The position numbers and the translations under genes are program-made. A stretch of DNA of 64,000 bases from an uncultured Verrucomicrobiae bacterium (lineage in GTDB: Bacteria; Verrucomicrobiota; Verrucomicrobiia; Chthoniobacterales; UBA10450): contig CAWFGO010000002.1 of NCBI GenBank assembly GCA_963815455.1, positions 512,001-576,000 of the forward strand, written 5' to 3'. This document shows, piece by piece, positions 6,159 through 26,550 of this stretch (the first letter of the stretch is position 1; each line of letters opens with the position of its first letter). The notes under the pieces were generated by a model that saw nothing but the letters and a program-made list of their open reading frames with translations, was not told the origin of the DNA and made no database searches.

Positions 6159-6770
6159 GTGGCGACCTCGTTCCTGCTCGCCTCCCGGTCGCCGCGCCGG
6201 ATCGAATTGCTCGCCGCCGCCGGTTTTCGGTTCGACATCGTCGCCCCGAATATCGCCGAACGCGACGATGTCGATTTTACCATGCGCGAGCTGACCGCCT
6301 GGAATGCGCTTCGGAAAGGGATTTCCATCGCGCGCGCGCATCCAGACAAAATCGTCCTCGCCGCCGATACTCTCGTCGCGTTGCATGACCGGATCATCGG
6401 CAAACCGGCCGATCTCGATGAAGCGCGAAAAATCCTGCGCCGTTTGAGCGGGCGAACCCACCAGGTTTGTTCCGCCGTTTTCATTTGTCATCGGGCCGCA
6501 GGAAGATCGACATCGTTTCACGAAATTTCCCAGGTCCGTTTTCGTCGCCTCACCGATGCGATGATCGACAACTATTTCGCCAAAATAAATCCGCTCGATA
6601 AAGCCGGGGCCTATGCCGCCCAGTCTGCCATCGGACGGACTCGCCGTGGCGAGGGAAGCGGCGCCGAGATCATAGAAAAAATCGACGGCTCGTTCACCAA
6701 CGTCGTCGGCCTGCCCATGGAAAAAACCGCTCTCGCCCTGGCCCAATTCGGCGTTCACCCATCCAGGTAG
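6159..6770 (+). CDS. maf: Maf-family nucleoside triphosphate pyrophosphatase carrying an apparent 10-aa insertion
   Basis: LLASRSPRR, ADTLV, GKP, LSGRTHQV, DKAGAY and NVVGLP motifs. Confidence 0.92.
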   Translation: MATSFLLASRSPRRIELLAAAGFRFDIVAPNIAERDDVDFTMRELTAWNALRKGISIARAHPDKIVLAADTLVALHDRIIGKPADLDEARKILRRLSGRTHQVCSAVFICHRAAGRSTSFHEISQVRFRRLTDAMIDNYFAKINPLDKAGAYAAQSAIGRTRRGEGSGAEIIEKIDGSFTNVVGLPMEKTALALAQFGVHPSR

Positions 6771-6838
6771 GGACGCGCCCGTTCGACTTCGCTCAGGGCA
6801 GGCTCTCCGGTCGAAGACTCGCCGTGGCGAGCGCGTCC
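6767..6838 (+). repeat. GTAG-type REP interrupted by two nested micro-insertions
   Basis: Removing 6779-6803 and 6809-6828 restores GTAG-GGACGCGCTC-TCC-GAGCGCGTCC, a perfect 10-bp stem. Confidence 0.7.
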
Positions 6839-7065
6839 GACTAATTCTCCTCGTCCCGATCCGTGAAATCCGCCTAATCAGCGGTTTCCTCCGTCTTGCC
6901 ACGCAAATGTCACCAAAGAGCCCGCAAAAAACCTTCGAAAAGGATTGACTTTCGGGCCCGAGTTTATCAATCTCGGCATCGATAAAAAAGAACCGAGGCA
7001 AGGAGTGTCTTCCAATCGGGGGAAGCAGGAACCACAACGTTATTAATCTTATGAGGAAACGGACA

Positions 7066-8505
7066 ATGAATCAGAAATCGTGTTTCACTTTGGTCGCGTT
7101 AACCGCGCTCGTTCTGGCCGGCAGCGCCAATTTCGCCGCCGCTCAGCGTATTAACGAGGACCGGAACACCACATCGCATCACCGTGAGGACACCCTCCCG
7201 CCGATACCAGTTGTGCCGGCGGATTCGAACTGGACAGGTGGATCGGGGAACTGGGACAGCGATGCCAGTCCGGGATGGAACGGGACTGGTGTTCCGAACG
7301 CCATGGGAGCGGTCGCCAACTTCGGCGATACAGTTACCGGAACTACGACGCAGAATGTTGTGGGCGGCGTGACCGCAGGAACAATCTCGCTCACAAATAA
7401 TTCCAATAACTCCCGAACGATCACCAATACAAACGGCATCACGATGAACCAAGACGGAGGTGGGGCCGGATTCGCGACGATCAGCAATGCGAACGCTGAT
7501 ACTGGTACGAACTCTCTGCAGATTAACACCGGAATTCTCACACTTGCTGATGACCTGCTTATCAGCAACACAGGGGGTTCGACCAACACAACCGGAGCCA
7601 TCCAGATTACTTCCTCGATAGTGGGCGCCGGCAATGTAACGTTTAGCAATGCGAGCAATGCCGTATTGCAAGCTGGATCCATACGACTGCAGACGGGCGT
7701 CAACACGTTCGTTGGCTCGGTGCTTATCCAAAAAGGAACAGTAAGCTATAACCTGGCGACTGCGTTTGGTGGCGTCGGCAATGCTCTCACGCTGGGTCAA
7801 GTCGGTCAGGGCGGCGCAACCTTGATTTCTACGACGGGAGTGGGTGCCTCAAATAATATCACTGTTGCTTCGGGAACCGGGGGAACGCTAACTTTAGGTA
7901 CGGTAAGCACCGCAGCGTCCGGCGGAACATATTCAGGCGGCATTACCCTCAACGGCAATGTCAACATAACGAGTCAAAATACGAATCCCACGAATGGACT
8001 GAAGTTTACCGGTAATATTACCGGTGCGGGCGGAATTACGAAGGTTCAAACCGGCGTGGCCGTATTCAATCCTACAACAGGCGTGAATGATTATGCTGGC
8101 GGCACATCGATCAGCGCCGGACAACTCACGGTGTTGAAGGATAGCGCTCTTGGAACGGGCAACGTTAGTCTTCTGGCCAGCGGCGTCACTCTCCTACTAC
8201 AAGGCGGTGTGGCCAACGACTACATTTCCGATAACGCGACTCTGAGTATCGTCAGCGGTGCTGCGGCAAACCTGAACTTCACTGGCTCGGACAGCGTTAG
8301 TGGCTTGGTCCTTGGCGGTGTGGCGCAGACCGACGTGGGCGCCACTTACGGCTTTACCGGCAGCGGCGCGACCCATGAATTCGCGGATTTCTTCCTCGGC
8401 GCCGGCACGCTCACTTTGATTCCCGAGCCATCGACCTGGGCGATGACGATCATGGGCGCGGGCTTGCTCCTGGGCGTCCAGCGTTTCCGCCGCAAGAAAA
8501 GCTAA
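7066..8505 (+). CDS. PEP-CTERM-sorted protein with autotransporter-associated beta-strand repeats (alternative start 7051)
   Basis: Signal peptide; GAGGITKVQTG...NDYAGGTSISAGQL repeat; C-terminal IPEPSTWAMTIMGAGLLLGVQRFRRKKS. Confidence 0.9.
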   Translation: MNQKSCFTLVALTALVLAGSANFAAAQRINEDRNTTSHHREDTLPPIPVVPADSNWTGGSGNWDSDASPGWNGTGVPNAMGAVANFGDTVTGTTTQNVVGGVTAGTISLTNNSNNSRTITNTNGITMNQDGGGAGFATISNANADTGTNSLQINTGILTLADDLLISNTGGSTNTTGAIQITSSIVGAGNVTFSNASNAVLQAGSIRLQTGVNTFVGSVLIQKGTVSYNLATAFGGVGNALTLGQVGQGGATLISTTGVGASNNITVASGTGGTLTLGTVSTAASGGTYSGGITLNGNVNITSQNTNPTNGLKFTGNITGAGGITKVQTGVAVFNPTTGVNDYAGGTSISAGQLTVLKDSALGTGNVSLLASGVTLLLQGGVANDYISDNATLSIVSGAAANLNFTGSDSVSGLVLGGVAQTDVGATYGFTGSGATHEFADFFLGAGTLTLIPEPSTWAMTIMGAGLLLGVQRFRRKKS

Positions 8506-8523
8506 TTTCACAGGTTAGGTTTC

Positions 8524-8558
8524 AAACGCCTCTTCGGAATTCCCGAAGAGGCGTTTTT
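8524..8558 (+). terminator. Rho-independent terminator after the PEP-CTERM gene
   Basis: AAACGCCTCTTCGG-AATTC-CCGAAGAGGCGTTTTT hairpin followed by a T-run. Confidence 0.8.
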
Positions 8559-8564
8559 GCTTGG

Positions 8565-8732
8565 TGTAGAGGCCGGCGTGCCTGCCGCGCCGGAGTCTGG
8601 CGAAGGCGGGTCGCCCAAAGGGAAATTGCGCCCGACACGGGCGCCGCTACACCGGCTTTGCCGGAGAATGGTGTAGAGGCGGGCGTGTCGCCCGCAAACC
8701 AAGACATTGCGGCCGGCACGGCCGCCACTACA
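8565..8732. repeat. Two GTAG REP doublets left of the RAYT gene (8565-8651, 8672-8732)
   Basis: TGTAGAGGC(C/G)GGCGTG...TCGCCC ... CACGG(G/C)CGCC(G/A)CTACA; the first copy carries a 30-nt insertion at 8581-8610. Confidence 0.85.
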
Positions 8733-8740
8733 CTGGCAGA

Positions 8741-9202
8741 ATGATCAAGGGACGACCTCCCCGGCTTGATCAAATTTATCAATCTTACGATCCGCCGCTG
8801 TTTTTCGTGACGATGGGAACGTTGCATCGCCGCAGGATCGCGAAACTGGGCAAAGCGCATGCTGCGTTTCGCAAGTATGCCCAACGCGCTATCGAATTCA
8901 ATGTGGCTGTCGGCCGATACGTGATCATGCCAGATCATGTTCATTTTTTCGTCCAGGGTAATCAGAGTTTCGAGCTGACCAAGTGGGTAAACGGATTGAA
9001 ACGCACAATCTCGGTGGCGTTGGGCGCGACCAGCGACCGCCCGCTCTGGCAACCCGGCTTCTTCGATCATCTCTTGCGCAACGATGAGAGCTACGCACAA
9101 AAGTGGGACTACATTCGTGAAAATCCGATGCGGGCCGGCCTCGTGCAATCCGTGGATGAGTGGCCTTATCAAGGCGAGATCGTCCTGATCGATCGCGCCT
9201 AA
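8741..9202 (+). mobile_element. REP-associated tyrosine transposase (RAYT, Y1 HUH family)
   Basis: FFVT, YVIMPDHVH (HUH) and WQPGFFDHLLR...YIRENPMRAGLV motifs; flanked by REPs on both sides. Confidence 0.9.
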
Positions 9203-9203
9203 G

Positions 9204-9294
9204 TGTAGAGGCGGGCGTGCCGCCCGCAGAACCAAAATAATTGCGGCCGACACGGCCGCCTCTACATCCTGCGCCCGACACGGCCGCCTCTACA
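9204..9294. repeat. GTAG REP doublet plus an extra half unit right of the RAYT gene
   Basis: TGTAGAGGCGGGCGTGCCGCCCGC...GCGGCCGACACGGCCGCCTCTACA (9204-9266) and TGCGCCCGACACGGCCGCCTCTACA (9270-9294). Confidence 0.85.
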
Positions 9295-9694
9295 CTGAAA
9301 TGACCGGCTTTTCCCGGCAGCAGATTTCCAGCTTGTTCCCGTCAGGATCCTCGAAAAAGAACGCGTAATATCCGGGACTGTATCCCTGGCATACTTCCGG
9401 GCCTTCCATTGTTTTGCCGCCGATCTTGGCCACAAACTTCGCGATCCGATCGACTTCGTCGCGCGTATCCGCCCAAAACGAGATTCGGGTCCCGTTCGGT
9501 TGGTGCTGTCGATCCTCGGTAAACCCAAAAAATTCCGATGGCTTGTCCGGGCCGACCGAATAAAACGTGGCCCATTGGTTATCGGAGCGATTGCAGGTAA
9601 ACCCCAACTCAGGCAGGAGCTTCTCGTAAAATTTCATTGCCCGCTGAAAATCTTTTACCCGCAGATCAATATGATCGAATCGTCGTGTTTTCAT
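9290..9694 (-). CDS. VOC (glyoxalase/bleomycin resistance) family protein
   Basis: FDHIDLRVKD...FYEKLL...YYAFFFEDPDGNKLEIC. Confidence 0.9.
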   Translation of the reverse strand: MKTRRFDHIDLRVKDFQRAMKFYEKLLPELGFTCNRSDNQWATFYSVGPDKPSEFFGFTEDRQHQPNGTRISFWADTRDEVDRIAKFVAKIGGKTMEGPEVCQGYSPGYYAFFFEDPDGNKLEICCREKPVISV

Positions 9695-9770
9695 TTTCGT
9701 GATTGTCGATCGCCCGGTTGAGTGATGTCAACGAATCCCGCGTCGGGGGCAAGCGGCGCAAACACACTCC

Positions 9771-10134
9771 GACATCCTGAGCGGAGCGGCCTGCCCGGCC
9801 GTAGCTTTATGCGAAGGCGGGCCTGCCCGGCCGTAGCTTTATGCGAAGGCGGGAAGGACCCCGCGAGTCGAGGCAACGTTCGCGAGCAATCATGCGATCA
9901 CGCTTCCAGGGTGGTTCGATACGCTTCAGTGCGACTGTGAGGTCCCTCGCTGCGCTCGGGATGACACCGCATCGCGCTCTTTTCTGTCATCCTGAGCGCA
10001 GCGAAGGACCCCGCGAGGAAAGACAACGTTCGCGGGCAATCATGCGATCGCGCTTTCAGAGCGGCTCGGTACAGTGAAATTCGTCCGGGAGGTCCCTCGC
10101 TCCGCTCCCGCCACGGCGGGCAGGCGGGATGACA
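9771..10134 (+). repeat. Doublet of ~132-bp MITE-like palindromic repeats (R1 9771-9966, R2 9985-10134)
   Basis: Termini TGTCATCCTGAGCG-AGCGAAGGACC ... GGTCCCTCGCT-CGCTCGGGATGACA; shared core GTTCGCG(A/G)GCAATCATGCGATC(A/G)CGCTT. Confidence 0.85.
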
Positions 10135-10225
10135 GACGAAGAGCAGCGCGAGACTCGCTGAGTCGCTTAATGGCTGCTTTCCAGTGCGGTCGGGCTCCGT
10201 TAAACTGCGCAAACGCCTTCGCGAA

Positions 10226-10495
10226 ATGAACAAGACGTTCTATGTCTACGTCATGACGAATCGCAGCCGGGTCGTTCTTTATACCGGAGTCACGAATGAC
10301 CTGGCGCGCCGGACATGGGAACACCAAAACGCGGAGGTCAAAGGCTTCACCAAGACTTATCGGGTGAATCGGCTCGTCTATTACGAAGCGTGCGACGACC
10401 CCCGCGTCGCCATTAGCCGGGAAAAAGAAATCAAAGGCTGGCGGCGTAGTAGGAAAAACGCACTGGTGGAAGCAGCTGAATCCAAAATGGAATGA
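10226..10495 (+). CDS. Small stand-alone GIY-YIG nuclease; probable 1-nt frameshift near the 3' end
   Basis: FYVYVMTN...LYTGVTNDLARR...EH...LVYYE...AISREKEIKGWRR; the family motif LNPKWNDLS continues in another frame after ~10473. Confidence 0.88.
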   Translation: MNKTFYVYVMTNRSRVVLYTGVTNDLARRTWEHQNAEVKGFTKTYRVNRLVYYEACDDPRVAISREKEIKGWRRSRKNALVEAAESKME

Positions 10496-10586
10496 TCTTT
10501 CTTCGATGCTTTTTCAACCGGCGCCAAATCCCTCGTCTGTTGCGCAAACGCACAAAATCGAAATGAAGATCTACGCGCTCTTTTTC

Positions 10587-10886
10587 CGTCATCCTGAGCG
10601 GAGCGAAGGACCCCGCGAGTCGAAGCAATGTTCGCGAGCAATCATGCGATCACGCTTTCAGTATTGTTCGGTGCCGTGAACTTCGACTTTGAGGTCCCTC
10701 GCTAACGCTCGGGATGACATCCCATCACGCTTTTTCTGTCGTCCTGAGCGAAGCGAAGGACCCCGCGGGTAGAAGCACCGTTCGCGAGCAATCATGCGAT
10801 CACGCTTTCAGAACGGTTCGGTGCATTCAAGTGCGACTGTGAGGTCCCTCGCTACGCTCCCGCCACGGCGGGCAGGCGGGATGACA
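10587..10886 (+). repeat. Second doublet of the same MITE-like repeats (R3 10587-10719, R4 10737-10886)
   Basis: Same termini and core as R1/R2; R4 carries the same 18-nt insertion as R2. Confidence 0.85.
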
Positions 10887-10902
10887 GAGCGACAGCACGG
10901 AA

Positions 10903-10916
10903 CGTTCGCTTGAACA
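10903..10916 (+). promoter_or_regulatory. Putative LexA (SOS) box upstream of imuA
   Basis: CGTTC-GCTT-GAACA, one mismatch to the Verrucomicrobia LexA motif TGTTC-N4-GAACA; overlaps a -35-like TTGAAC and ends 27 bp before the ATG. Confidence 0.7.
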
Positions 10917-10943
10917 TATTTTAATTGCTGCCAAAATACCGAC

Positions 10944-11585
10944 ATGCCGGCGGCACATCAAATTGTCGATCTTCGGAAGTTTCTGGCCGAGCGATTTCCC
11001 CAAACCCAGGCACCCCGTGCCCCTGCTCGTTTAACTACGGGATGGGATTGTTTCGATCGGGCAACGGGCGGCGGCCTTTCCCAAGGCGCGATCACGGAAG
11101 TAATCACCCCGCGAATCAGCGCCGGCAGCGCATCGCTGATTCACACACTCCTCCGAGGGGCCCAGCGCGACGGCTATTTTATCGCCCTCATTGATGGCAG
11201 CGATTCTTTCGATCCTCAGTCGCTGGACAACGATTGCTTGGGCCATCTCCTTTGGGTGCGCTGTAGCAAAGCCTTCGAAGCGGTCAAAGCGGCCGATCTC
11301 CTTTTGCGCGACGGCAATTTTCCCCTGGTGATTGTCGATCTTGTTTTCAATCCGGCCGAAGAACTCCGCAAAATTCCGCAGACGAGCTGGTACCGGTTGC
11401 AACGGCTCGTCGAATCAGTTCCCACGGCTTGTCTGGTCCTGAGCCGTCAAAACATGGTCAGCAGCGCCCAGCTGAAAATCGTTCTGGAAAATTCTTGGCG
11501 ACTGGAAACTTTGGAAAAAGACTCCGCGATTTCGCAAATGCAATTTCGTGTCCGGCGATCGCATCGCAGATCGGAGGCCAGTTAA
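10944..11585 (+). CDS. imuA: ImuA/RecA-like mutagenesis cassette protein
   Basis: LTTGWDCFDRATGGGLSQGAITEV, degenerate Walker A, ALIDGSDSFDP, ADLLLRDGNFPLVIVDL. Confidence 0.7.
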   Translation: MPAAHQIVDLRKFLAERFPQTQAPRAPARLTTGWDCFDRATGGGLSQGAITEVITPRISAGSASLIHTLLRGAQRDGYFIALIDGSDSFDPQSLDNDCLGHLLWVRCSKAFEAVKAADLLLRDGNFPLVIVDLVFNPAEELRKIPQTSWYRLQRLVESVPTACLVLSRQNMVSSAQLKIVLENSWRLETLEKDSAISQMQFRVRRSHRRSEAS

Positions 11586-11589
11586 ACGA

Positions 11590-12126
11590 ATGTTCGCCAC
11601 GATTTATTTGCCTAATTTTTATTTACAGGCGGCCATTCGACATCAACCAAAACTCCGCGCCCACCCGGTGGCATTGATCGATGCCGCCCAGGCAAAAATA
11701 ATCCAGCTCAATGAGGCCGCCGAAACAGCAGGGATCGGCAAGGGAATGGCCCCCAGCCAGGCGCTGGCGCGTTGTTTGCAGGTCGTCATCAAAACAAGGG
11801 AACAGGTGCAGGAAAATGTGATCGCCGAAATTCTGCTTCAACACGCGTTCACCCTGTCGCCCTATGTGGAGGCAACTGCACCCGGGGTTTGCACCGTCCA
11901 ATTTACCGACCAGCGCAATTTGGGAGCGAAGGTGTCTCGAGCGATCGATCAATTGGCCCGTTGTGAAATTACCGCCCAAGCCGCGATTGCGCCGACACCG
12001 GACATCAGTTTTCTCGCGGCCCACCTGGCTCATCCTCTCCTGCAAATCGAAGAGGGAAAAGAATTCCTCGCTCCGCTGCCGATCGAAACGCTCGCTGTAG
12101 CCGGGATCGTTGATCCCGGTCGTTGA
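11590..12126 (+). CDS. imuB: ImuB-like inactive Y-family polymerase, N-terminal (IMS) domain only, 178 aa
   Basis: MFATIYLPNFYLQA...PVAL...GIGKGMAPSQALARC...LSPYVE...FLAPLPIETL; ends in a REP-derived tail. Confidence 0.65.
   Translation: MFATIYLPNFYLQAAIRHQPKLRAHPVALIDAAQAKIIQLNEAAETAGIGKGMAPSQALARCLQVVIKTREQVQENVIAEILLQHAFTLSPYVEATAPGVCTVQFTDQRNLGAKVSRAIDQLARCEITAQAAIAPTPDISFLAAHLAHPLLQIEEGKEFLAPLPIETLAVAGIVDPGR
12097..12119 (+). repeat. GTAG REP at the 3' end of imuB
   Basis: GTAG-CCGGGATC-GTT-GATCCCGG. Confidence 0.65.
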
Positions 12127-12130
12127 ATCT

Positions 12131-12796
12131 TTACTCGGCCACCGTCGCCGGTTTGGTTTCGATTAGCAGCCGGTAAACCAAGCCGCCCAGTGCCCCGCCC
12201 AGCAACGGGCCGAGCCAATAAACGTAATGCGCTTTCCAGAAACCGGCGACTATGGCCGGGCCCAACACTCGCGCCGGATTCATAGCAGCGCCGGTGAGCG
12301 GTCCCCCGAATAGAGCGTCGAGCGTGACTGTCGCTCCTATTACCAGCCCGGCCACGCGACGCGGCCCCCGCTCATCCACTGCTACACCGTGAACGATGAA
12401 GACCAGAAAGAACGTCAGGATCGCCTCCACCAATATCCCCTGTCCCGGCGTGAGACCGATCGCCAGTTGCGGCGTGCCATTCACAACCACATCGCGTCCG
12501 AACATCCCGAGGCAGATCAAACCCGCGGAAATTCCACCCAGACATTGTGCCATCCAGTAGCGAATGGCGTTGCCCACGCTCATGTGACCGCCGCAGACAA
12601 GACCAAAAGTCACGGCCGGATTCAACTGGCCGCCGGAGATGTGCATCGTCGCGGAAACGAACGCGGCAAACGTCAAACCATTGGCAAGAGCGATGGCGAG
12701 AACGTCGTGCCCAGCGGTTTTCATGGCCCCGATACCGACAAAAACGAATGCGAACGTTCCGATAAATTCTGCCAGAAGCGGACGAAACTTCGTCAT
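12131..12796 (-). CDS. MIP/aquaporin family channel
   Basis: AEFIGTF, HISGGQLNPAVT and GAAMNPAR (two NPA motifs). Confidence 0.92.
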   Translation of the reverse strand: MTKFRPLLAEFIGTFAFVFVGIGAMKTAGHDVLAIALANGLTFAAFVSATMHISGGQLNPAVTFGLVCGGHMSVGNAIRYWMAQCLGGISAGLICLGMFGRDVVVNGTPQLAIGLTPGQGILVEAILTFFLVFIVHGVAVDERGPRRVAGLVIGATVTLDALFGGPLTGAAMNPARVLGPAIVAGFWKAHYVYWLGPLLGGALGGLVYRLLIETKPATVAE

Positions 12797-13069
12797 CCTT
12801 CGATCCAAACAAATTAGCCGCGCGCTGACAACTGTGTTTGTCGCCCCCGTGCGTCCCACCGGGATACAGCTATAGGACGCGAGACAGATATCGATTTAAC
12901 CGCCAGCGGCGTTGTTCCCAGCGCAAGCGCGGAGCGATGGCGGGATCATCGCAGGACCTTCCCAAGGCGGTTCTACAAATGAAAAAAGCGAAGACCTCTC
13001 GCGCATCTTTTACGGTCGAAACGCTCGCGATCGTGACGAGATGTTGCTAGATTCGGACCAGGAAAATTT

Positions 13070-14158
13070 ATGCGAACTGATCAACGCAAACGTCTGGATT
13101 TTTTTGAACGCTACCTGACGGGGTGGGTCTTCGCCTGCATGGTCGCGGGCATTGCCCTCGGGAAATTGTTGCCCGGCCTCACCCGGCATCTCAGCGTGCT
13201 GCAGTTCGGCAGAAATTCGCACGTTAACATCGCCATTGCCGTGCTCATCTGGCTGATGATTTACCCAATGATGTTAAAGATTGATTTTGGTGGTTTAAAA
13301 GACGTGGCCAAAAAACCCAAGGGGCTGCTCATCACCCTTTTTGTTAACTGGTTGGTCAAACCGTTCAGCATGGCTCTGCTCGGGTGGTTTTTCATGCAAT
13401 GGCTATTTTCTTCGTCTCTGGGTTGGATCACGATGGAGGACGCAAAGAATTACACGGCCGGCCTGATCATCCTGGCTGCGGCGCCTTGCACCGCGATGGT
13501 CTTTGTTTGGAGCTACCTAACGGATGGCGATGCTCCTTATACGTTGGCCCAAGTTGCCATTAATGATCTGATCATGATCTTCGCATTTGCGCCGATTGTG
13601 ATGTTCCTGGCCGGCGTGAGCGGCGTCGCCATTCCTGGTGAAGTTCTTCTCGTCTCAGTTCTGATCTTCATCGTCATCCCGCTGGGGGCGGGAGGAATTA
13701 GCCGCGTCATCCTCATTCGGGCCATGGGGCTGGCCTGGTTCGAGAGGAGCTTTCTGCCAAAGTTCCGTCCGGTGACCATCCTTGCACTGCTCGCGACTCT
13801 GACTCTGATCTTCGCATTTCAGGCCGAGAACATCACCACCAACTGGTTCACCGTGGTGCTCATCGCCATTCCTATCCTCCTTCAGGTCTACTTCAATTCC
13901 GGCCTTGCCTATGGACTGATGCGGCTATTCAGAGTACGGCACAACGTCGCAACACCCGGCGCTCTGATCGGAGCCAGCAACTTTTTTGAACTCGCGGTGG
14001 CAGTTGCCATTACTTTGTTCGGACCCACCTCCCCCGCCGCCCTCGCTACCGTCGTGGGAGTACTGGTAGAGGTGCCTGTGATGCTATCGGTCTGCAAAAT
14101 CTGCATCAACTCGAAGAGATGGTACGAGCAAGACTCGCTCTCCCTTGCCAACGCTTGA
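13070..14158 (+). CDS. acr3: ACR3-family arsenite efflux transporter
   Basis: FERYLT.WV, MIYPMMLKIDF, NWLVKPFSM, AAPCTAMVFVW, ASNFFELAVA and GVLVEVPVML motifs. Confidence 0.93.
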   Translation: MRTDQRKRLDFFERYLTGWVFACMVAGIALGKLLPGLTRHLSVLQFGRNSHVNIAIAVLIWLMIYPMMLKIDFGGLKDVAKKPKGLLITLFVNWLVKPFSMALLGWFFMQWLFSSSLGWITMEDAKNYTAGLIILAAAPCTAMVFVWSYLTDGDAPYTLAQVAINDLIMIFAFAPIVMFLAGVSGVAIPGEVLLVSVLIFIVIPLGAGGISRVILIRAMGLAWFERSFLPKFRPVTILALLATLTLIFAFQAENITTNWFTVVLIAIPILLQVYFNSGLAYGLMRLFRVRHNVATPGALIGASNFFELAVAVAITLFGPTSPAALATVVGVLVEVPVMLSVCKICINSKRWYEQDSLSLANA

Positions 14159-14254
14159 ATGACCTAATATGAACAACGTCGCGCGTGCCGATGCAGCGAA
14201 TGCCTGCGAATCCAGCAAGGCGCCGTCTAGTTCGTTCGAGGGAGTGATCTCGAT

Positions 14255-17546: not shown

Positions 17547-17555
17547 CACAATCAT

Positions 17556-17589
17556 GCATCCCGCATCTCGCATCTCGCATCCTGCATCC
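17556..17589. repeat. Heptamer tandem array (CGCATCY), inverted relative to 17132-17163
   Basis: GCATCCC GCATCTC GCATCTC GCATCCT GCATCC. Confidence 0.8.
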
Positions 17590-17591
17590 GT

Positions 17592-18359: not shown

Positions 18360-18443
18360 GCCGAGAATCCGATAATCATAGGCGAGCCAGGAAGGGATGC
18401 AATAGCCGCGCACAAAGGTAAGACCGCCTAATGGCGAAGTTGC

Positions 18444-20414
18444 TCAAACGAATCGGTCGCCGCCGGCCCAGCGCCGGACCCGAAAGATATGGGCCGGTTG
18501 TATTTCCGGATCGAGCTCAACGTAATTTCGGCGCCCGCGCCAGATGTAACGCGCCCCGCTGAGAAGATCGTGCACTTGATATGTATCGCCTTCCATCTCG
18601 CCGAACTCATCGATCGGCACATCGACATAGGAATCCTGTTTGCGATGCGGGTCGAGGTTGACCACCACCAGAATGATGTTGTCCCGGGCCGCGGTCATCT
18701 TCCCGTAAAAGAGGATCGAATCATTATCGGCCTCGAAGAAACGAAGATTGTCGTAAAGCTGCAGCGCGCGGTTTTCCTTCCGGATTTGGTTTAAGCGCGT
18801 GATCCAGTCCTTGATATTTCCGGGCGCATCCCAGTCGCGTTCCTTTAACTGATACTTCTCGGAATCGAGATACTCCTCGCGTCCCGGAAGAGCGGCGTTC
18901 TCGCAAAGTTCGTATCCGCTGTAGATGCCGTAAACACTCGACATCGTCGCCGCGAGCACAACGCGAGTCATGAATGCCGGCCGGCCGCCATCCTGCAAAA
19001 TAGGCGGCAAAATGTCCGGCGTGTTTGTCCAAAAATTCGCGCAGAAGTATTCGCTCATCTTGGTTTGCGTCAGCTCGATTCCATATTCGGTGAGCTCGAG
19101 TTTCGAGTTTCGCCATGTGAAATAAGTATAGCTTTGAGTGAAACCGGCCTTGGCCAGGGCTTTCATCATCTTCGGCCGGGTGAATGCTTCGGCGAGAAAA
19201 AGCACATCACGATATTTGGCACGGACGTTCGCGATCAGATATTCCCAGAAGGCAACCGGCTTGGTGTGCGGATTATCAACGCGAAAGATGCGCACACCGC
19301 GATCGGCCCAAAAGATGATAATGCTTACCATCTCGGCCCAAAGTTCGCGCCAGTTTTCGCAACGGAAGTTTAACGGATAGATGTCCTCGTATTTTTTGGG
19401 CGGATTCTCGGCATATTTGATCGTGCCATCGGGCCGTTTGTAAAACCATTCGGGATGCTCGCGAACATAGGGATGATCGGGCGAGCAATTGATCGCGAAA
19501 TCAAGCGCCAGCTCCAGGTTCCGCTTTCGAATCTCGCCCATGAGCCAATCGAAATCCTCCAGCGTGCCGAGCGACGGCTCGACCGCTTTATGCCCACCGG
19601 CTTCACTCCCGATGGCCCACGGCACGCCCGGATCGCCCGGATCGGAGGTAATCGAATTGTTGCGGCCTTTCCGATTGGTGTGACCGATAGGATGGATGGG
19701 CGGGAAATAAATGACATCGAACCCCATCGCTTTGGCATCATCGAGTCGCGGCAAACAATCGCGGAATGTCGACCCTCGATCGCCCCAGCCTTGAGCTGAG
19801 CGCGGGAAAAATTCGTACCAGGCGCCGATACGGGCTGCCGATCGATCGACAATGACGCGCGGATATGGAGCGTATTGGCTGGCGTCGGTGCGGTCGGAAT
19901 ACGTCGCCATCAAGACCTCGAGCTCGCCGGAATGGATGATGCTGTTTACCTTCGCGCTCTTCACGGTGCTGATTTGTTGCGACAGCTCGACCAGGCGTGC
20001 CGTGTCCGTGGGATCGAGCGCGCGTTGCGCGGCGGCGCCGACCAGGGCGGCGCCTTCCAGGGCCTCGCTCGTGAGATCAGCGATGCCGCTTTCGAATTTT
20101 TTGCTGAACTCGACTTGCCATCCGCGAAACGAGTCCGTCCAGGCTTCGACCGTGTATTCGAAGGTGGCGCTTTCGTAAAGCGTGCAGACACCGCGCCAAC
20201 GATCGTTGTCGACCAGCGTCATGGGCGTTTCCTGCCAGCGATTCTCCCCGAGCATTCGCCACTTCAGCACCGCGGCGACAACGTCGTGCCCATCTCGAAA
20301 AATATCTGCCTCCACCGCCAGGTCCTGGCCGGCAATCCGTTTGACTGGATAGCGCCCGCCGTCGACTAACGGCTGCAAATTCTCGATAACAACGGATGGA
20401 AAGGCCCTAAGCAT
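18444..20414 (-). CDS. glgE: Alpha-1,4-glucan:maltose-1-phosphate maltosyltransferase
   Basis: WYEFFPRS, YFPPIHPIG, RKGRNN, YAENPPKKYEDIYPL, FRVDNPHTKP and EEYLDSEKY motifs. Confidence 0.95.
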   Translation of the reverse strand: MLRAFPSVVIENLQPLVDGGRYPVKRIAGQDLAVEADIFRDGHDVVAAVLKWRMLGENRWQETPMTLVDNDRWRGVCTLYESATFEYTVEAWTDSFRGWQVEFSKKFESGIADLTSEALEGAALVGAAAQRALDPTDTARLVELSQQISTVKSAKVNSIIHSGELEVLMATYSDRTDASQYAPYPRVIVDRSAARIGAWYEFFPRSAQGWGDRGSTFRDCLPRLDDAKAMGFDVIYFPPIHPIGHTNRKGRNNSITSDPGDPGVPWAIGSEAGGHKAVEPSLGTLEDFDWLMGEIRKRNLELALDFAINCSPDHPYVREHPEWFYKRPDGTIKYAENPPKKYEDIYPLNFRCENWRELWAEMVSIIIFWADRGVRIFRVDNPHTKPVAFWEYLIANVRAKYRDVLFLAEAFTRPKMMKALAKAGFTQSYTYFTWRNSKLELTEYGIELTQTKMSEYFCANFWTNTPDILPPILQDGGRPAFMTRVVLAATMSSVYGIYSGYELCENAALPGREEYLDSEKYQLKERDWDAPGNIKDWITRLNQIRKENRALQLYDNLRFFEADNDSILFYGKMTAARDNIILVVVNLDPHRKQDSYVDVPIDEFGEMEGDTYQVHDLLSGARYIWRGRRNYVELDPEIQPAHIFRVRRWAGGDRFV

Positions 20415-20488
20415 GAGCCATCAATCAACTGAAATTCGCAGCTAGCGAAAGCGGAAATCGCACCCGGCGGCCGGGATCGGCATTGCCC

Positions 20489-21130
20489 CTAGGTCGCGAA
20501 ATAAAAGGCGCACTCGAACAAGCCGGAGTTGCGCGACTCCTCCCGGCGCACTTGAGTGCCCAGAATGGCCTGGAACATCTGTTCTTCGAGCCGGCCAATA
20601 ATCGGATAGTAATCGAGCAGGTTCATGATCGGCGAATGGCATTCCAGGATGTGCGGGCTGGCCTCTTTCTCGCCGGCAACGAACTGGGCCATGTAGCCTT
20701 CGCCATCGCGGGTGCGGGCAAGCCATTTGGCGCGCTCAGCCACCGTTCCACCTTTAACCTTGGCCTTGAGACCAGCGGTCCTTTTCTCGAAAAGATTATA
20801 AAGAAGTTTTTCTGGCGCGTTGGTTCCGTGAATTTCCTGAATCGATGTCAGCAGTTCGAGCGTAAATTGATTGCTATCGACAGTGAAAAGGTCGTGGCTC
20901 CGGCGGGTGAGCCGGTAAACCATTTCAGGACGGCCCATCTTTTGCGGGCGCCGCCAGGTATCAAGGTAGCCGTCGCGCTGGAGAGTCACGCAATGCTGCT
21001 TGATCCCCATGTAGCTCATCTTCATTCGTTGGACGAGCTCGTTGACCGACATCCCCTTGGTCCGCTTAAGCGAATTAAGAATCTCAAGCCGCTGGGTGCG
21101 GCCAATTTCTGCAAGCAATCGTTGATTCAT
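20489..21130 (-). CDS. Winged-HTH transcriptional regulator, SufR/ArsR-like
   Basis: N-terminal HTH (SVNELVQRMKMSYMGIKQH), GRPEMVYRLT, C-terminal ECHSP...C. Confidence 0.75.
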   Translation of the reverse strand: MNQRLLAEIGRTQRLEILNSLKRTKGMSVNELVQRMKMSYMGIKQHCVTLQRDGYLDTWRRPQKMGRPEMVYRLTRRSHDLFTVDSNQFTLELLTSIQEIHGTNAPEKLLYNLFEKRTAGLKAKVKGGTVAERAKWLARTRDGEGYMAQFVAGEKEASPHILECHSPIMNLLDYYPIIGRLEEQMFQAILGTQVRREESRNSGLFECAFYFAT

Positions 21131-21216
21131 AGCCAGTAAATTGAAACGCGGACTTTACACGCCGACCTCTTCAAAAGGCAACATCGAAATTACGCAACTT
21201 GCCGAGAAGAAGGAAA

Positions 21217-22143
21217 TTACGACACCTTCGATGTCGATCCTGGCCGGAAAGGGAGTGCTACGATTTCGACCGGCGCCCGCGCAACATCCGCTTTCTCCGC
21301 ATCAAACGCCTCCAACTTGCCCCCGACATCGTTGAACCCACGCTTGACGTAGCCCAGCGCAATTTCCTGGCCTTCGCTCCGCGTGGCGCTGGTGACCCAG
21401 CCTGCTTCCTTGTCCCCCCGCTTCAGTCTCATGCCGGGCGAAAGCGGGAGGGCATTCAAAGAAACCAGACCGCATAATCGCTTGTTGGTTTGCCCCGACA
21501 TCTTGATTCGGGAGATCACCTCCTGCCCGATGTAGCAGCCTTTTTCATAATCGACCGCGCGGCTCTCGAGATTCGCTTCAATCGGAATGATCTCTTCCGT
21601 CAACTCCCGCCCCCAACGCGGAATTCCCTGCTTGATTCGGAAGACCTCCGCGGTCGCGTCATCAAAAAATCGAAAGCTGTCCGATAATTCCTGCAGAACA
21701 GAGTCGTGGCGCGACGAATCTATCCATATGTCCCACCCGGATTCGACGAACCGCCGGACGGACACGACGCGACAATCGCTGCCGGCTTTGGGCGGGGCCG
21801 GAGTCAAAACGTGGAAGATCGACAATCGCTCGGCGATGCTCTCGATTTCAACGTCGTCGGCGATTACGTAACGATCGAGCCTGGCCGGGAGGGTCTCTCG
21901 CAACTCGGAGTCGGCATCGACAAAGAAACTGTCGTGGGTGCTGGAGGCGAAAACGTGGGCGTTCATTTTGCCTTTCGCGCCCAAGATGCAGGCTTCAATC
22001 GCGGCGGATTCAGTCGCTTTGCGCACGTCGTTGGTGAGTTGTCCGTTCAGAAAACGCAACCGATCGCTTCCGGTGACGCGGATTTTGGCTCGCGAAGACA
22101 GATCGAAAAGCGAATCGATCGAGCTCTGAGACGGCGCCGTCAT
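21217..22143 (-). CDS. ygfZ: YgfZ/GcvT folate-binding protein
   Basis: VTGSDRLRFLNGQLTNDV and the KGCYIGQE signature. Confidence 0.9.
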   Translation of the reverse strand: MTAPSQSSIDSLFDLSSRAKIRVTGSDRLRFLNGQLTNDVRKATESAAIEACILGAKGKMNAHVFASSTHDSFFVDADSELRETLPARLDRYVIADDVEIESIAERLSIFHVLTPAPPKAGSDCRVVSVRRFVESGWDIWIDSSRHDSVLQELSDSFRFFDDATAEVFRIKQGIPRWGRELTEEIIPIEANLESRAVDYEKGCYIGQEVISRIKMSGQTNKRLCGLVSLNALPLSPGMRLKRGDKEAGWVTSATRSEGQEIALGYVKRGFNDVGGKLEAFDAEKADVARAPVEIVALPFRPGSTSKVS

Positions 22144-22166
22144 TGTCTCTTGGCGCGAATTTCCGA

Positions 22167-23360
22167 TTAGTAGTCGCTCTGACGCCGCAACAAGCGGCTT
22201 AGAAAACCGCGTCGGGGTTCTGATTCCTCCGCGAGGTCTTCCTCAGGCAAATTTGTGTTATCTGCCGCATCGCTGTTTTGAGTTCGCGGCAGGTGTTCTT
22301 CAGCCACAGGGGCAATAGGGGTGAATTCAGGAATCGCGGAAACGACCTCGGCATTACCGCCGGGGACCGGCGCCGCAGGGATGACCGGAACGACCGCGCT
22401 AGCGTGCTCCGGTTGAGGAGCCTCAGGCGAAGGCGGTGGGCTCGGTGGTGGCGGAGCTGGCGGTTGTTCGAACAAACCCAATCCAGCTTCATCACGAGGC
22501 TGCGCTTGGGCCACAGCGAAATATTTCCGGGCGATGGCCGAATAATCTTCGTCTCCATAACCATGCTGCATCTGCTCGAGCAGCCGGTCCCGGGTGGCGG
22601 TCGTCACCGCCAATTCCAGATGATAGGACAACCCCATCCGGGTCGCGATCTGAATGTCTTTAAGCATGTGCTTGATCGAAAAATGCGGATCGAAATTCGT
22701 GTCGATCATTTTCGGCAGCTTCATGGCCAGAGTTTTGGAATTGCTGGCATTGCCGCGCACCGCCTCGACCAGTTTCTGCAAAGGCAGGCCAACCGTGCTG
22801 ACCAGCGCAAGCGCCTCCGCCCCGGCTTGAACGCTCGCGGCGGTAATCATGTTGGTGGCGATCTTAATCGCCGTGGCCTGTCCAATTTCGCCGATCAAAA
22901 TAAATTCCTTGCCGCTGGCTTCGAGAATCGGCCGCGCTTCCTGAAGTGCCATCTCGTCTCCTCCGACATAAAAAATCAGCTCGCCTTTTTCCGCTGCTTT
23001 CTTGCTCCCCGTGAACGGTGCTTCGATAAAACGTGCGCCCCGCCGTTCCACAATGTCAGCCGCCTCCCGCATCGTATATGGGGCCACGGTGGAGTGCGCG
23101 ATGACTACGTGCCGGGGCGCCAGTGCCGATGCCAGTTGCTTGCAGACCTCAAGGAGCGCCTCGTCGTCGGACACAAAAATTTGCACGAAATCGCACATCT
23201 CGGCGATCTCCGCCGGCGCGCCGACGAAGTTCGGTACCGGCCGCGGGGTACGATTCCAAACGAAAACGTGAAACCCCTTTTTGCGAAGGTTTTCCGTCAC
23301 TCGGCTGCCGATAATACCGAGACCGATCACTCCTACATTTTTTCGTGTTCGACGGGACAT
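22167..23360 (-). CDS. NAD(P)-dependent beta-hydroxyacid dehydrogenase (3-hydroxyisobutyrate DH family) with Pro-rich C-terminal tail
   Basis: VGVIGLGIIG, WNRT, EAPFTGSK, KIATN and FSIKHMLKD motifs. Confidence 0.85.
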   Translation of the reverse strand: MSRRTRKNVGVIGLGIIGSRVTENLRKKGFHVFVWNRTPRPVPNFVGAPAEIAEMCDFVQIFVSDDEALLEVCKQLASALAPRHVVIAHSTVAPYTMREAADIVERRGARFIEAPFTGSKKAAEKGELIFYVGGDEMALQEARPILEASGKEFILIGEIGQATAIKIATNMITAASVQAGAEALALVSTVGLPLQKLVEAVRGNASNSKTLAMKLPKMIDTNFDPHFSIKHMLKDIQIATRMGLSYHLELAVTTATRDRLLEQMQHGYGDEDYSAIARKYFAVAQAQPRDEAGLGLFEQPPAPPPPSPPPSPEAPQPEHASAVVPVIPAAPVPGGNAEVVSAIPEFTPIAPVAEEHLPRTQNSDAADNTNLPEEDLAEESEPRRGFLSRLLRRQSDY

Positions 23361-23475
23361 AAGCCTTAGGTTCCCAGCCGAAGCGGGAACCTCCAAACGA
23401 CCAGACTGCAGGCAAAGTCGCTTCCAAGCAATCCGGAAGTTTATGAATTTTACAGAGGCCGCCAGCCCCCTATGG

Positions 23476-24474
23476 CTAAAGCGAAAGCCGCACGAAACGG
23501 GCTTCCCGCACGAGTTTATCCGCCAGGCGCTGAACGATCTCCCGTCGCCTGTCGTTCTCCAGCTTTAGGCGAATTTCGCCCTTCGCTTCCTCGAAATTCA
23601 TCTGCCGTGCCGGACGGGAATCAGTCAATTTAACGATATGAAATCCCAGTAGCGTCTGGATGGGAGCGCTAAGTTGCCCGAGATGCATTTTGTCGATGGC
23701 GGCAATAAAATCGGGCGGCATCCGGGACGACGAGAAAAATCCGAGATCGCCACCTCTTATTTTGGTGGCCTCGTCCTCCGACATCAGACCGACAAGCTCG
23801 GAAAAATCCTCACCGTGACTTAACCGAACGGAAACGGAGTCGATGGTCCGCCGTTTAAGATCGACAACCGGCGCTGGAGTCTCAGCCGGGGCGGCCAGGA
23901 AAAGATGGCTGGCTCGAAAACGCGCCGGCAAGGCAAATGCTGCCTGATGTGCGTCAAAATATCCGGCGCACTCGTCTTCCGTGACTCGTGTTTCGTTCCC
24001 AAGCCGCCGCTCGATCCATTTCTGCGCTCGAAGATTGTCCGCGATATACGCGCGCAAAGATCGAGGCGACAAACGATTCCCTCCCAGCGCGGCGATCCAG
24101 ACGTGCCGGTCGCGAAATTGAGACCGAATGAGATCGAATTCACGATCGATCTGTATTTCTGAAATCTCTTCCGTTTTCGAATGCTGTTTTACGGCAACTG
24201 TTGCGATCAAGCGCGCTAGAACCGCGCGTTTCGCATCGACATCGTCGGGATCGACAGCGTCCCGGCCCTTCGCGTAATCCAATTCCTCGATCTCGCGTTC
24301 AACATCCGTTTCGTAGATTCCCTCCCCACCCGTCAGCGCGAGCAGATGGCCCCGCCCGAATCCGCCTCCGATGACATCACGGCACGTAACCGAATGGCAG
24401 ATCAATTGACCGAGCACGATTCCCGCGGCGCCCGCCGCCACGCACAATCCGGCCACCAGACCAGCGCGGTTCAT
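23476..24474 (-). CDS. Parvulin (PpiC/SurA-type) peptidyl-prolyl isomerase
   Basis: RASHLFL...SEDEATKIRGGDLGFF...GFHIVKL. Confidence 0.85.
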   Translation of the reverse strand: MNRAGLVAGLCVAAGAAGIVLGQLICHSVTCRDVIGGGFGRGHLLALTGGEGIYETDVEREIEELDYAKGRDAVDPDDVDAKRAVLARLIATVAVKQHSKTEEISEIQIDREFDLIRSQFRDRHVWIAALGGNRLSPRSLRAYIADNLRAQKWIERRLGNETRVTEDECAGYFDAHQAAFALPARFRASHLFLAAPAETPAPVVDLKRRTIDSVSVRLSHGEDFSELVGLMSEDEATKIRGGDLGFFSSSRMPPDFIAAIDKMHLGQLSAPIQTLLGFHIVKLTDSRPARQMNFEEAKGEIRLKLENDRRREIVQRLADKLVREARFVRLSL

Positions 24475-25391
24475 TTCAACGCAAATTCCTCCAGATAATA
24501 CGCGGCGACCGTTCCAACGATCTGCAAACTTTCCGCGCTGATCTTGTCCATGGTGTCACCGGGCGTATGCCAAGCGGCGAAATCGAAGTCGATAAGATCG
24601 ATCGTCGGAATTCCGATGGCGTTAAGCGGTGTGTGGTCGTCGGTAATCTCGAAATCGAAATAGGTGAAGTAACTGCGCAATTTCAACGCTTCGGCGGCGG
24701 CGAAAATGTCGTGCACCATTGCGGCGGGCGAATCCGGCGGCACCGTAATGTTCAGATCACGATCCCCCACCATGTCGAAGAGGATCCCGCCGCGAAATTG
24801 CTTTGCGGCTTTGCCTTCAAGTTGCTGGGCAAAATAGCGGCTGCCATAAAGACCGTCCTTGGCCGAAAAACTTTCGTAGGCCTCTTCGCCGTCAAAGAAA
24901 ACCAGCTCAACCTTTGCCGCCAACCGCGGGTGCTGGCCGAGAACTCGCGCCAGTTCCATCAACAGACCCGTGCTGGAGCCACCGTCGTTCGCTCCAACGA
25001 AACGCTTATTATAAAGCGTCTTGGTGTCGTAATGAGAACACAACAAAAACGACGGCGCTGTTTTCTGCGCCGCCGCAAAGCGGGCGATCAGGTTAACAAA
25101 TCGGACTTTTCCCTGGGGCGTGTCACCGGTGAATTCCTGGCGCTCGACCTTCCAACCCGCCTGCCGAAGCTGATTGTCGATGTAACCGCGAGATTTCTCG
25201 ATGGCATCGGAAGCCGGCGGACGCGGCCCGAAATCTACCAGCTGCTGGACGTGGGCGAGCGCTTTTTGGCCGGAAAATTCGCGCCAGATTTTCTGTTCCG
25301 GCGCGACCGGCGATTGCGGACGACGGCAGGACACGAGGAGCAGAGCAAAAAGGAGTAATGGAGCAATGGAGTAATGGGGTAAACGTTTCAT
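24471..25391 (-). CDS. M28-family peptidase / glutaminyl cyclase-like lipoprotein
   Basis: Lipobox LLVSC; SHYDTK, GANDGGSSTG, FFDGEE, DMVGD, DDH and WHT motifs. Confidence 0.88.
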   Translation of the reverse strand: MKRLPHYSIAPLLLFALLLVSCRRPQSPVAPEQKIWREFSGQKALAHVQQLVDFGPRPPASDAIEKSRGYIDNQLRQAGWKVERQEFTGDTPQGKVRFVNLIARFAAAQKTAPSFLLCSHYDTKTLYNKRFVGANDGGSSTGLLMELARVLGQHPRLAAKVELVFFDGEEAYESFSAKDGLYGSRYFAQQLEGKAAKQFRGGILFDMVGDRDLNITVPPDSPAAMVHDIFAAAEALKLRSYFTYFDFEITDDHTPLNAIGIPTIDLIDFDFAAWHTPGDTMDKISAESLQIVGTVAAYYLEEFALK

Positions 25392-25416
25392 TCTTAGACA
25401 GCACTCCATCACTCCA
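25352..25416. repeat. Inverted octamer arrays (GGAGTAAT / CACTCCAT) around the peptidase start codon
   Basis: GGAGTAAT GGAGCAAT GGAGTAAT GGGGTAA ... GCACTCCATCACTCCA. Confidence 0.6.
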
Positions 25417-25426
25417 CCGAGAGCGC

Positions 25427-26329
25427 TTAGCTTTCGCTCGCCTCTAGCCCCAAGGCGGTGACGACCCTTTGAAGATCGTCGTTCCCGTAGTATTCGATCT
25501 CGATCTTTCCTCGCTTTTCTCCATGATGGATTCTCACATGCGTGCCGAGATGCTGTTGCAAACGATTCTGCAAATCTTCGATTGCAGCGGAGCTCGAGGC
25601 CGGTCCGGTCGCGCGCTGTTTTCGACGACTCTTGCCAATTCCTAGCTGTCGCGCCACCAGCCGTTCCGTCGCCCGAACGGTCGCGCTGCGTCGCAAAACC
25701 GTTTCCGCGGCCAGGAGTTGCTCCTCCGGTATCTTTAACGCGAGCAATACCTTGGCATGTCCGACCGAAAGGAGATTCTGCGTAACCCAAATCTGCACCT
25801 GTGGATGCAGATCGAGCAGCCGCATCGCGTTCGCCACCGCGGCCCGGCTGCGCCCGACTTTTTGGGCAATGTCTTCCTGCCGCAGCCGAAATTCGCCGGC
25901 CAATCGCGCGTAACCCTGCGCTTCTTCGATCGGGTTCAGGTCGGCCCGTTGCAGATTCTCGATCAGAGAAATTTCAAGCACCTCGAGATCGCTGGCGGTG
26001 CGAATGATCACCGGTACCTGGCTGAGCCCGAGTTCCTGGGCCGCGCGCCAGCGGCGTTCCCCCGCGATCAACTCCAATCGACCGCCCATTTGGCGGACGA
26101 TGAGGGGTTGAATAATGCCGTGCTGCTTGATCGAATCGACCAGTTCCTGTAGCGCTTCCCGGGCAAAATCCTTCCGCGGTTGTAACGGGCTCGGCACAAT
26201 ACTGGCCAGGCCGACCTCGTGAACTTTCTCCCTTGAATCGGCATCGACCTCGGTCCGAAGCGGCGCAGGCCGGGTCCCGATCAGCGCGCCGAGCCCCTTG
26301 CCGAGACCGGTTTTAGCCATCTTCGCCAT
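25427..26329 (-). CDS. parB: ParB/Spo0J chromosome partitioning protein
   Basis: GLGKGLGALI, QPRKDF, LIAGERRWRA, IENLQRADLNPIEEA motifs. Confidence 0.93.
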   Translation of the reverse strand: MAKMAKTGLGKGLGALIGTRPAPLRTEVDADSREKVHEVGLASIVPSPLQPRKDFAREALQELVDSIKQHGIIQPLIVRQMGGRLELIAGERRWRAAQELGLSQVPVIIRTASDLEVLEISLIENLQRADLNPIEEAQGYARLAGEFRLRQEDIAQKVGRSRAAVANAMRLLDLHPQVQIWVTQNLLSVGHAKVLLALKIPEEQLLAAETVLRRSATVRATERLVARQLGIGKSRRKQRATGPASSSAAIEDLQNRLQQHLGTHVRIHHGEKRGKIEIEYYGNDDLQRVVTALGLEASES

Positions 26330-26368
26330 CGTGCTGAGGCTACCGGAACAGCTCTCACAACGCAAATC

Positions 26369-26454
26369 TGTAGCGGCGGTCTCCGACCGCCGTTCTCCTC
26401 GCCTCTCTGCGCCAGCGCCACAACCCTGCTGTAGCCGCGGGCGCCGACCGCGGC
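26369..26454 (+). repeat. Two GTAG REP units upstream of parB
   Basis: TGTAGCGGCGGTCTCCGACCGCCG and TGTAGCCGCGGGCGCCGACCGCGGC. Confidence 0.65.
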
Positions 26455-26550
26455 CTCTTGGTTCAAATCCGTAATCGCTGACCAGCCTTCGCTCGCGACA
26501 GCATGGCAGGCACCTTCCTCACCCGGAATCCCCCTACCAAATCCGCCAAC

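Follow-up and report, generated by a model that had tools for sequence, protein, structure and literature searches.

Which enzyme places insertions of only 18–32 nt into other repeats and into genes? This question is raised by a window of 64,000 nt (the whole stretch analyzed here, positions 512,001 to 576,000 of contig CAWFGO010000002.1, i.e. C2:512001-576000 of genome G000) from an uncultured Verrucomicrobiae bacterium whose 3.6-Mb genome is 90% complete. An initial annotation of the window had proposed that one enzyme recognizes a CCTGCC tag at the head of all these units. We found that the units belong to four families, A to D. We regard family A as the partner hairpin of a clade of stand-alone GIY-YIG nucleases, termed clade K. 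With moderate confidence, and by analogy with a known system, we propose that these enzymes cut single-stranded DNA (ssDNA) beside the tag of the unit and that host repair would paste the unit into a new site.

Micro-Insertions in the Window and in the Genome

The seven sequences listed in the initial annotation were all recovered where it had placed them. Genuine very small insertions are present, since filled and empty sites compare precisely in the maf gene, in the repeat dimers R1, R2 and R4 and in repetitive extragenic palindromes (REPs; coordinates in Table 1). In maf the insert adds 10 codons in frame and was absent from all 25 relative genomes readable at the site (27 relatives had a maf match, two of them unreadable there; G003 and G008, both unpublished, are among the 25). 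A left shift of its boundary by 1-2 nt is possible. The insert in R1 indeed contains two extra tandem 32-mers, but its length is 65 instead of 64 nt due to one more G. The 18-mer of R2 and R4 is missing from R1 and R3. For the insert annotated at 8581-8610 in a GTAG-type REP, seven other copies of the REP run from GGCGT directly into G, five as GGCGT followed by GTCGCCCG. The insert reported at 6779-6803 is likewise extra relative to a sibling but comprises 26 nt, one base more than claimed. A second unit in the same REP, at 6810-6830, had been overlooked; in a sibling of this REP at C3:782138 the second unit (D2) is present alone. At 26482-26511 a related copy does exist, a degenerate family A unit for which no empty sibling was found. 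An origin of this copy as a relic of a tRNA end was rejected, as no matching tRNA end occurred among 50 tRNA calls.

Each of the four families terminates in a hairpin whose last base lies on the right junction, usually with an overlap of one purine. Family A is represented in G000 by 64 copies with a strict core and by 81 copies when head and tail are scored, family B by 18, family C by 7-8 and family D by 17 core matches. Three Markov simulations yielded 1, 1 and 0 strict A cores. The pattern matches of C (7-8) and D (8+5) compare with 0 in Markov simulations.

Anatomy and Junctions of Family A

A family A unit consists of a leader of 3 nt, a YGYC tag and a stem GCC-GNA-GC-loop-GC-GNA-GGC, which is lengthened by further pairs. 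The third base of the tag covaries with the last base of the unit. In 76 of the 81 units (five without a readable tag were omitted) 60 C-G and 13 T-A combinations were counted; of the three exceptions, two were judged by eye to be nested units. The tag itself is TGCC or CGCC in 61/76 and of the TGTC type, with T at base 3, in 15/76. The same covariation was observed in the hairpins of the clade-K cassettes described below, with 37 C-G, 20 T-A and two other combinations, and there the inner stem is swapped as well (GCC/GGC in 38, GGC/GCC in eight and GTC/GAC in five). GNA/GNA loops are able to form sheared G.A pairs, and we infer such pairs for the inner loop of family A in ssDNA. Folding with the DNA parameters of ViennaRNA, whose model does not comprise sheared G.A pairs, slightly preferred the tagged strand.

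Excision from the leader to the terminal GG restored the exact sibling, with a start 3 nt before the tag, at 20 of the 24 sites with at least three empty siblings (compared by eye). In family B, 22 readable metagenome hosts showed a fixed right junction. On the left side three hosts had no extra base and 16 had one (4 nt before the tag); for the other three the number was an ambiguous three. The initial annotation had noted no clear target-site duplication. A real duplication is indeed missing, but a one-purine overlap exists: in 62/76 A units the base that follows the unit is identical to the one lying 3 nt before the tag.

A Clade of GIY-YIG Genes Adjoining Family A Hairpins

Besides one match in a long open reading frame (ORF), which we take to be UvrC, G000 contains eight GIY-YIG matches. 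Two of these genes (C5:75709-75942 and C1:1431226-1431456) have an A-type hairpin just upstream, one of them behind tmRNA. In the tree their homologs fall into one starred clade of 15 rows (clade K), while the other 14 rows lack the arrangement and several show a different hairpin. The clade-K protein is a stand-alone polypeptide of 78 residues (78-80 amino acids in the clade), matches PF01541 above the cut-off and gave a confident GIY-YIG-like model. Conserved Tyr, Arg, His and Glu residues are likely to be catalytic, and the predicted fold resembles the GIY-YIG domains of Slx1 and UPF0213; a Foldseek search with the model gave no match at E≤0.001, the best value being 0.007. The nearest named homologs of the G000 protein come from Verrucomicrobiae/Chthoniobacterales.

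A search with an alignment of 13 clade-K sequences provided 81 loci, namely the best 80 of at least 580 confirmed in a genome scan and one viral locus, with L190 repeating L184. The total number of stretches fitting the clade-K search pattern is estimated at about 4100. The loci span Verrucomicrobiota, Acidobacteriota, Alphaproteobacteria and others. An A half-site was found within 250 nt upstream of the gene at 78/81 loci (72 with both halves) compared to 3/76 control windows. A tRNA or tmRNA stands upstream of the gene at 69/81 loci, and in 63 of these 69 the reversed unit ends exactly on CCA. The base after such CCA-fused units is C in 58/58 and the next two bases are CA in 36/58, which fits an insertion into C^CA that restored the tRNA end. 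We infer this route for the CCA-fused units.

Clade K and family A also occur together across genomes. Among 30 relatives an intact clade-K gene was detected in 9/11 A-positive genomes (including the unpublished G015) and in 0/19 A-negative ones. In a sample of 120 genomes from the class, at least one A copy was present in 17/25 genomes with a clade-K profile match versus 10/95 without, and at least three copies in 10/25 versus 1/95. At least five copies were reached by 5/25 versus 0/95. The borderline match of G049 turned out to come from another clade. A stricter cut gave 15/22 versus 12/98 for at least one copy, 9/22 versus 2/98 for at least three and 1/98 without clade K for at least five. 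A lone A match in a genome can be the clade-K cassette itself.

The initial annotation had already named a GIY-YIG enzyme among its candidates. This type of enzyme is the best candidate, but it is not the GIY-YIG encoded in the window, which pairs with the host repeats R1-R4. CGTC-type repeats adjoin 14/15 genes of its clade. As a partner of family A the window gene was rejected, being present in 6/11 A-positive and 6/19 A-negative relatives.

Landing Sites

The suggestion that the inserts favor other repeats was borne out, as a repeated 14-mer, with at least six occurrences, was found at 42/81 empty A sites versus 217/5000 random sites. The motif GTCGAT, part of the commonest 14-mers of the genome, follows directly after 10/81 A units versus 0.28 expected. 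Family A prefers GATCGAC motifs and repeats of other kinds. Sequences based on CGATGTCGATCTT/AAGATCGACATCG make up the commonest 14-mers, with up to 95 copies, and represent a HIP1-like over-represented motif, a landing site of A.

Within ORFs of at least 200 codons 21/81 A units were located, 17 of these 21 with a length divisible by three. Three of five fetched in-gene A sites were compared with relatives. All three are single 30-nt in-frame insertions in single genes, and the 10 residues are lacking in 5/5 relatives, in 3/3 and in the one displayed row, respectively. Most of the 21 units are antisense to the gene, and by eye those on the same strand are often TAG-free variants.

Proposed Mechanism and Alternatives

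By analogy with SsnA, which is discussed below, the 78-residue clade-K nuclease would bind family A as ssDNA. It would cut 3-4 nt 5' of the YGYC tag and in this way fix the left junction. We commit to a predicted ssDNA cut at this position because the left junctions 3 or 4 nt before the tag are compatible with the SsnA cut. The freed end may then be copied or ligated by a host polymerase or ligase at nicks or short homologies, which is the weakest step, and the one-purine overlap would serve at the joint. Afterwards many copies would multiply together with the host repeat as host-plus-insert composites, a process suggested by the observed pattern.

A number of results weigh against this mechanism. 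The A-negative relative G002 carries a broken clade-K copy, and no clade-K gene was found in the A-rich relatives G007 and G011. In the class sample 8/25 genomes with a clade-K match lack strict A and 10/95 without clade K have at least one copy; the association in the Fisher test is overstated because kin genomes are not independent. Downstream half-sites occur at only 12/80 clade-K loci, and since the hairpins stand mostly on one side the gene is unlike a two-ended transposon in appearance. Variants of the insert group according to host site, with an edit distance of 4.5 within and 6.2 between sites and 0/2000 permutations as extreme (36 units in five classes). Consequently, many copies stem from few founder events, and independent insertion events are far fewer than 81. 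The predicted homology bias of the 3' flank was not found (p=0.45). As GIY-YIG enzymes only hydrolyze DNA, another enzyme would be needed for the joining step. For the other families, no GIY-YIG gene was present within 500 nt of 119 metagenome B loci or of 28 viral C loci, nor did 30 further C loci or 30 D loci reveal a GIY-YIG partner.

Some of these results would be expected if clade K bound its hairpin for a local job only, either control of its own gene or holding of the cassette at tRNA ends, while the copies elsewhere multiplied passively, through gene conversion between sibling repeats and by hitch-hiking on host repeats moved by RAYT or Ssn. The clustering of variants and the incomplete co-occurrence speak for such a spread. 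The same applies to the flanks, which are common between A sites beyond random on both sides (4.5 and 3.9 versus 2.8 nt), and to the A units in CGTC-type hosts, 20/20 of which lie on one strand at two positions. Copying primed by the 3' flank was rejected, as the sharing of flanks showed no left/right asymmetry. However, precise single inserts in unrelated single genes need de novo integration with few bases of similarity, and the restriction of at least five A copies to genomes with a clade-K match in the class sample (at the first cut) weighs against passive spread as well. We consider this explanation unlikely, although it is the strongest of the alternatives.

Less probable again is excision and insertion of the units by an HUH enzyme of the RAYT or TnpA type with the YGYC tag as guide. 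The absence of a real target duplication, the ssDNA hairpin with its 5' tag and the tandem copies resemble HUH chemistry, HUH enzymes are able to join DNA, and 16 Y1 transposase matches were found in G000. Yet the conserved partner gene is a GIY-YIG, and the RAYT genes viewed carry their own REPs at their flanks instead of A units. None of the 81 catalogued A units lies within 700 nt of any of the 14 RAYT genes, though the looser unit at 8581 adjoins one. A role of the tag base as HUH guide was rejected because a stem pair explains its covariation. Proximity to four-helix-bundle genes (PF05635; 20 matches in G000, 16 above cut-off) was rejected as well, with 0/81 catalogued A units within 700 nt of the 16 genes.

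That one enzyme reads a CCTGCC tag and inserts all families, as originally proposed, appears improbable. It is true that a common leader-tag frame, GCY-YGYC, and a common right-end rule link A, B and C, that B resembles A minus the inner loop, and that in family f1 6/6 B-positive and 6/6 D-positive relatives are also A-positive. But the supposed common head (C/T)CTGCC does not hold. Just 34/81 A units start with GCCTGCC, the units of D and D2 lack the head, and TCTGCC, as read in the maf unit, is a TCCGCC variant. The claim of a single tag fails because CCTGCC is not enriched in the genome (2073 seen versus 2201 expected; for GCCTGCC 758 versus 700) and because family D opens with a GTC..GAC hairpin. 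Moreover, the bodies of the units form separate families, the class-level distributions of A, B and C differ, and the hairpin is specific to each GIY-YIG clade examined; B-like hairpins adjoin another GIY-YIG clade than clade K at three loci (L533, L534, L554). Finally, assembly chimeras or chance can practically be dismissed: no RNA run was listed and the one DNA run listed (share 0.06) does not span the region, but units occur in 11/30 relatives and many other taxa, compensatory pairs are kept and the frame is kept in 17 of the 21 long ORFs.

Hairpins of Other GIY-YIG Clades

Returning to cutting by clade K and host repair, one may ask whether the scheme extends beyond family A. B, C and D probably have nuclease partners of their own, with a candidate at hand for B only. 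This candidate clade was not found in G000 and was detected in 1/201 genomes, with weak matches only among viruses. The A-richest genomes, G087 and G082, contain no family B, and G049 has 19 copies of it. No clade-K gene was found among the eight GIY-YIG matches of G049. Family D was not found in viral contigs.

Other clades show comparable arrangements. A hairpin of the CCCCGAAAG type adjoins 11/12 genes of another GIY-YIG clade. The corresponding micro-hairpin CCCCGAAAG..TTCGGGG (window 27462-27479) has 47 pattern matches genome-wide, both strands counted, and around the genes of its clade it stands in place of the anticodon arm in partial tRNA copies. Further GIY-YIG genes directly follow tRNA-Pro (C3:553128 and C3:491045 in G000; L194, L195, L213). 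In most cases a repeated 3' half of a tRNA comes next, with a GTCGCC..GGCGAC hairpin at its head. A small clade behind tRNA-Met (L209, L240) has a GC-rich hairpin downstream in a repeated tRNA 3' end; the hairpin of L209 contains CCCGCCGTGGCGGG, the stem of family B.

It is a tentative possibility that stand-alone 80-residue GIY-YIG nucleases mobilize a whole class of 18-32-nt elements, one clade per hairpin family, by cutting and host repair and without transposase, recombinase or reverse transcriptase. If true, this would account for the spread and mutual nesting of transposase-less repeats of the CGTC type and of those resembling the small dispersed repeats (SDRs) treated below.

Other Features of the Window

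The 5' stretch of the window comprises maf, a PEP-CTERM protein gene, a RAYT gene, a glyoxalase-family gene and the stand-alone GIY-YIG gene with R1-R4 around it (Table 1). The family B unit of R4 was probably copied together with its host repeat. An Rfam search of window positions 5000-28000 gave nothing above cut-off except one tRNA.

Table 1: Repeats, inserted units and associated genes in the window.
Feature	Position	Strand	Basis
maf (PF02545), host of a family D unit	6159..6770	+	profile match
Family D unit (GTC..GAC hairpin and TCGCC-GT-GGCGA hairpin), in-frame 30 nt in maf	6624..6653	+	empty relatives
GTAG-type REP with two different inserts	6767..6838	+	sibling comparison
Family C unit (GCC-TGCC leader and CTGAGC..GTCGAA core), one extra 5' base	6779..6804	-	sibling
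Short family D unit (D2), no CCTGCC head	6810..6830	+	sibling comparison
Family A unit (30 nt and shared G), in GTAG REP upstream of RAYT gene	8580..8610	+	REP siblings
RAYT (NF047646, above cut-off), partner of GTAG REPs	8741..9202	+	profile match
R1, dimer of CGTC-type repeats (host)	9771..9966	+	repeat comparison
Two tandem family A units and one extra G (65 nt) in R1	9788..9852	+	R1-R4 comparison
R2, CGTC-type dimer (host)	9985..10134	+	repeat comparison
Family B unit, 18 nt, in R2	10108..10125	-	R1-R4 comparison
Stand-alone GIY-YIG outside clade K, of the clade paired with CGTC-type repeats; Ssn-like by context	10184..10495	+	
R3, CGTC-type dimer, insert-free (empty control)	10587..10719	+	
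R4, CGTC-type dimer (host)	10737..10886	+	
Family B unit in R4, site identical to that in R2	10860..10877	-	R1-R4 comparison
Degenerate family A unit	26482..26511	-	sequence match

A RecA-like ORF and a second ORF, presumably ImuB-like, adjoin R4 (10944-12126); this putative repair polymerase cassette could matter for the joining step. The PEP-CTERM protein gene between the repeat clusters (7051-8505) encodes 484 amino acids and is of distinct composition. Two near-identical terminator-like hairpins with a common downstream motif (26551-26690 and 27305-27420) bracket a gene pair which we take to be possibly HicA/HicB-like.

Comparison with Known Systems

The closest parallel is the Ssn/NTS system. 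In the accessible text of Chenal et al. 2025 (PMC11893778), SsnA is described as binding just one strand of its hairpin, in the form of ssDNA, and as releasing a 20-nt 5' fragment of the oligonucleotide NTS75. By our own count on the NTS75 sequence given there this fragment ends 4 nt before the CGTC tag, and an SsnA homolog cuts one base away from the SsnA position. The authors propose mobility as a hypothesis. As far as that text describes the system, the likeness comprises a small single-domain GIY-YIG gene adjoining its own oriented hairpin with many dispersed copies, and a tag of four letters on the 5' side of the stem. The left junction of family A lies where Ssn cuts, a few bases 5' of the tag (PMC11893778).

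There are also differences to Ssn. A starred branch lies between clade K and the CGTC-linked clade, and the structures that match clade K best are UPF0213 and Slx1. The CGTC-linked clade is presumably CDD cd10448, the group to which Ssn members belong, and clade K presumably cd10449. A one-sided build and fusion to tRNA CCA ends distinguish the clade-K cassette. The SRM search pattern fits 0/81 family A units, and clade K and family A are not filed as Ssn for this reason; the pattern is narrow, since 0/225 host CGTC-type repeats fit it as well. Filled and empty sites of single units, nesting and in-gene insertion, all seen here, set family A apart from the Ssn account in its accessible parts (PMC11893778). 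The annotation had known of no described mechanism. Ssn cutting beside cognate hairpins and SDR micro-repeats are in fact on record. Our searches, with subscription papers mostly outside their scope, gave no account of the integration (joining) step or of the pairing of clade K with family A.

The SDRs of Nostocaceae are about 21-27 nt long, nest in other repeats and are not known to have a partner enzyme. Going by description, family A resembles them as a very small unit set precisely in over-represented palindromes, here GATCGAC motifs, and in other repeats. SDR5 is reported to insert in the over-represented palindrome HIP1 (Elhai et al. 2008, Genome Res 18:1484, as cited in the accessible parts of PMC5861425 and PMC3116915). 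Unlike family A, which belongs to another phylum, SDRs are Nostocaceae repeats; according to the accessible text of PMC5861425, HIP1-rich cyanobacteria other than Nostocaceae yielded no SDR-like repeats.

CGTC and GTAG REPs are tagged hairpins of 20-40 nt, some in ORFs and some regularly within other palindromes (Di Nocera et al. 2013, PMC3733652). The CGTC REPs are stated to 'lack a dedicated transposase', and GIY goes unmentioned in the accessible sections of that paper. As described there, a CGTC REP has a terminal CGTC or TGTC tag, an 8-9-bp stem opening with AT, a 4-5-nt loop and a CCA tail (PMC3733652). In contrast, the A stem starts with YC, is interrupted by a 3x3 inner loop and stops at the junction without a CCA tail, and A units are mostly single. 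They also differ from the GTAG REP/RAYT system in the absence of a terminal GTAG, and the RAYT genes viewed carry other REPs. Miniature inverted-repeat transposable elements have terminal inverted repeats and target-site duplications of at least 2 nt, whereas A has an unpaired 5' leader and a one-purine overlap at most sites.

Clade K adds another group of candidate sequence-specific ssDNA nucleases, with members in several phyla. Its pairing with family A predicts the strand, the position of the cut and the rule at the junctions, and the inserts appear to supply housekeeping proteins with insertions of 10 residues. The spread of repeats of less than 40 bases without transposase, as in SDRs and CGTC REPs, is a long-standing question, for which one candidate enzyme-substrate pair is now named.

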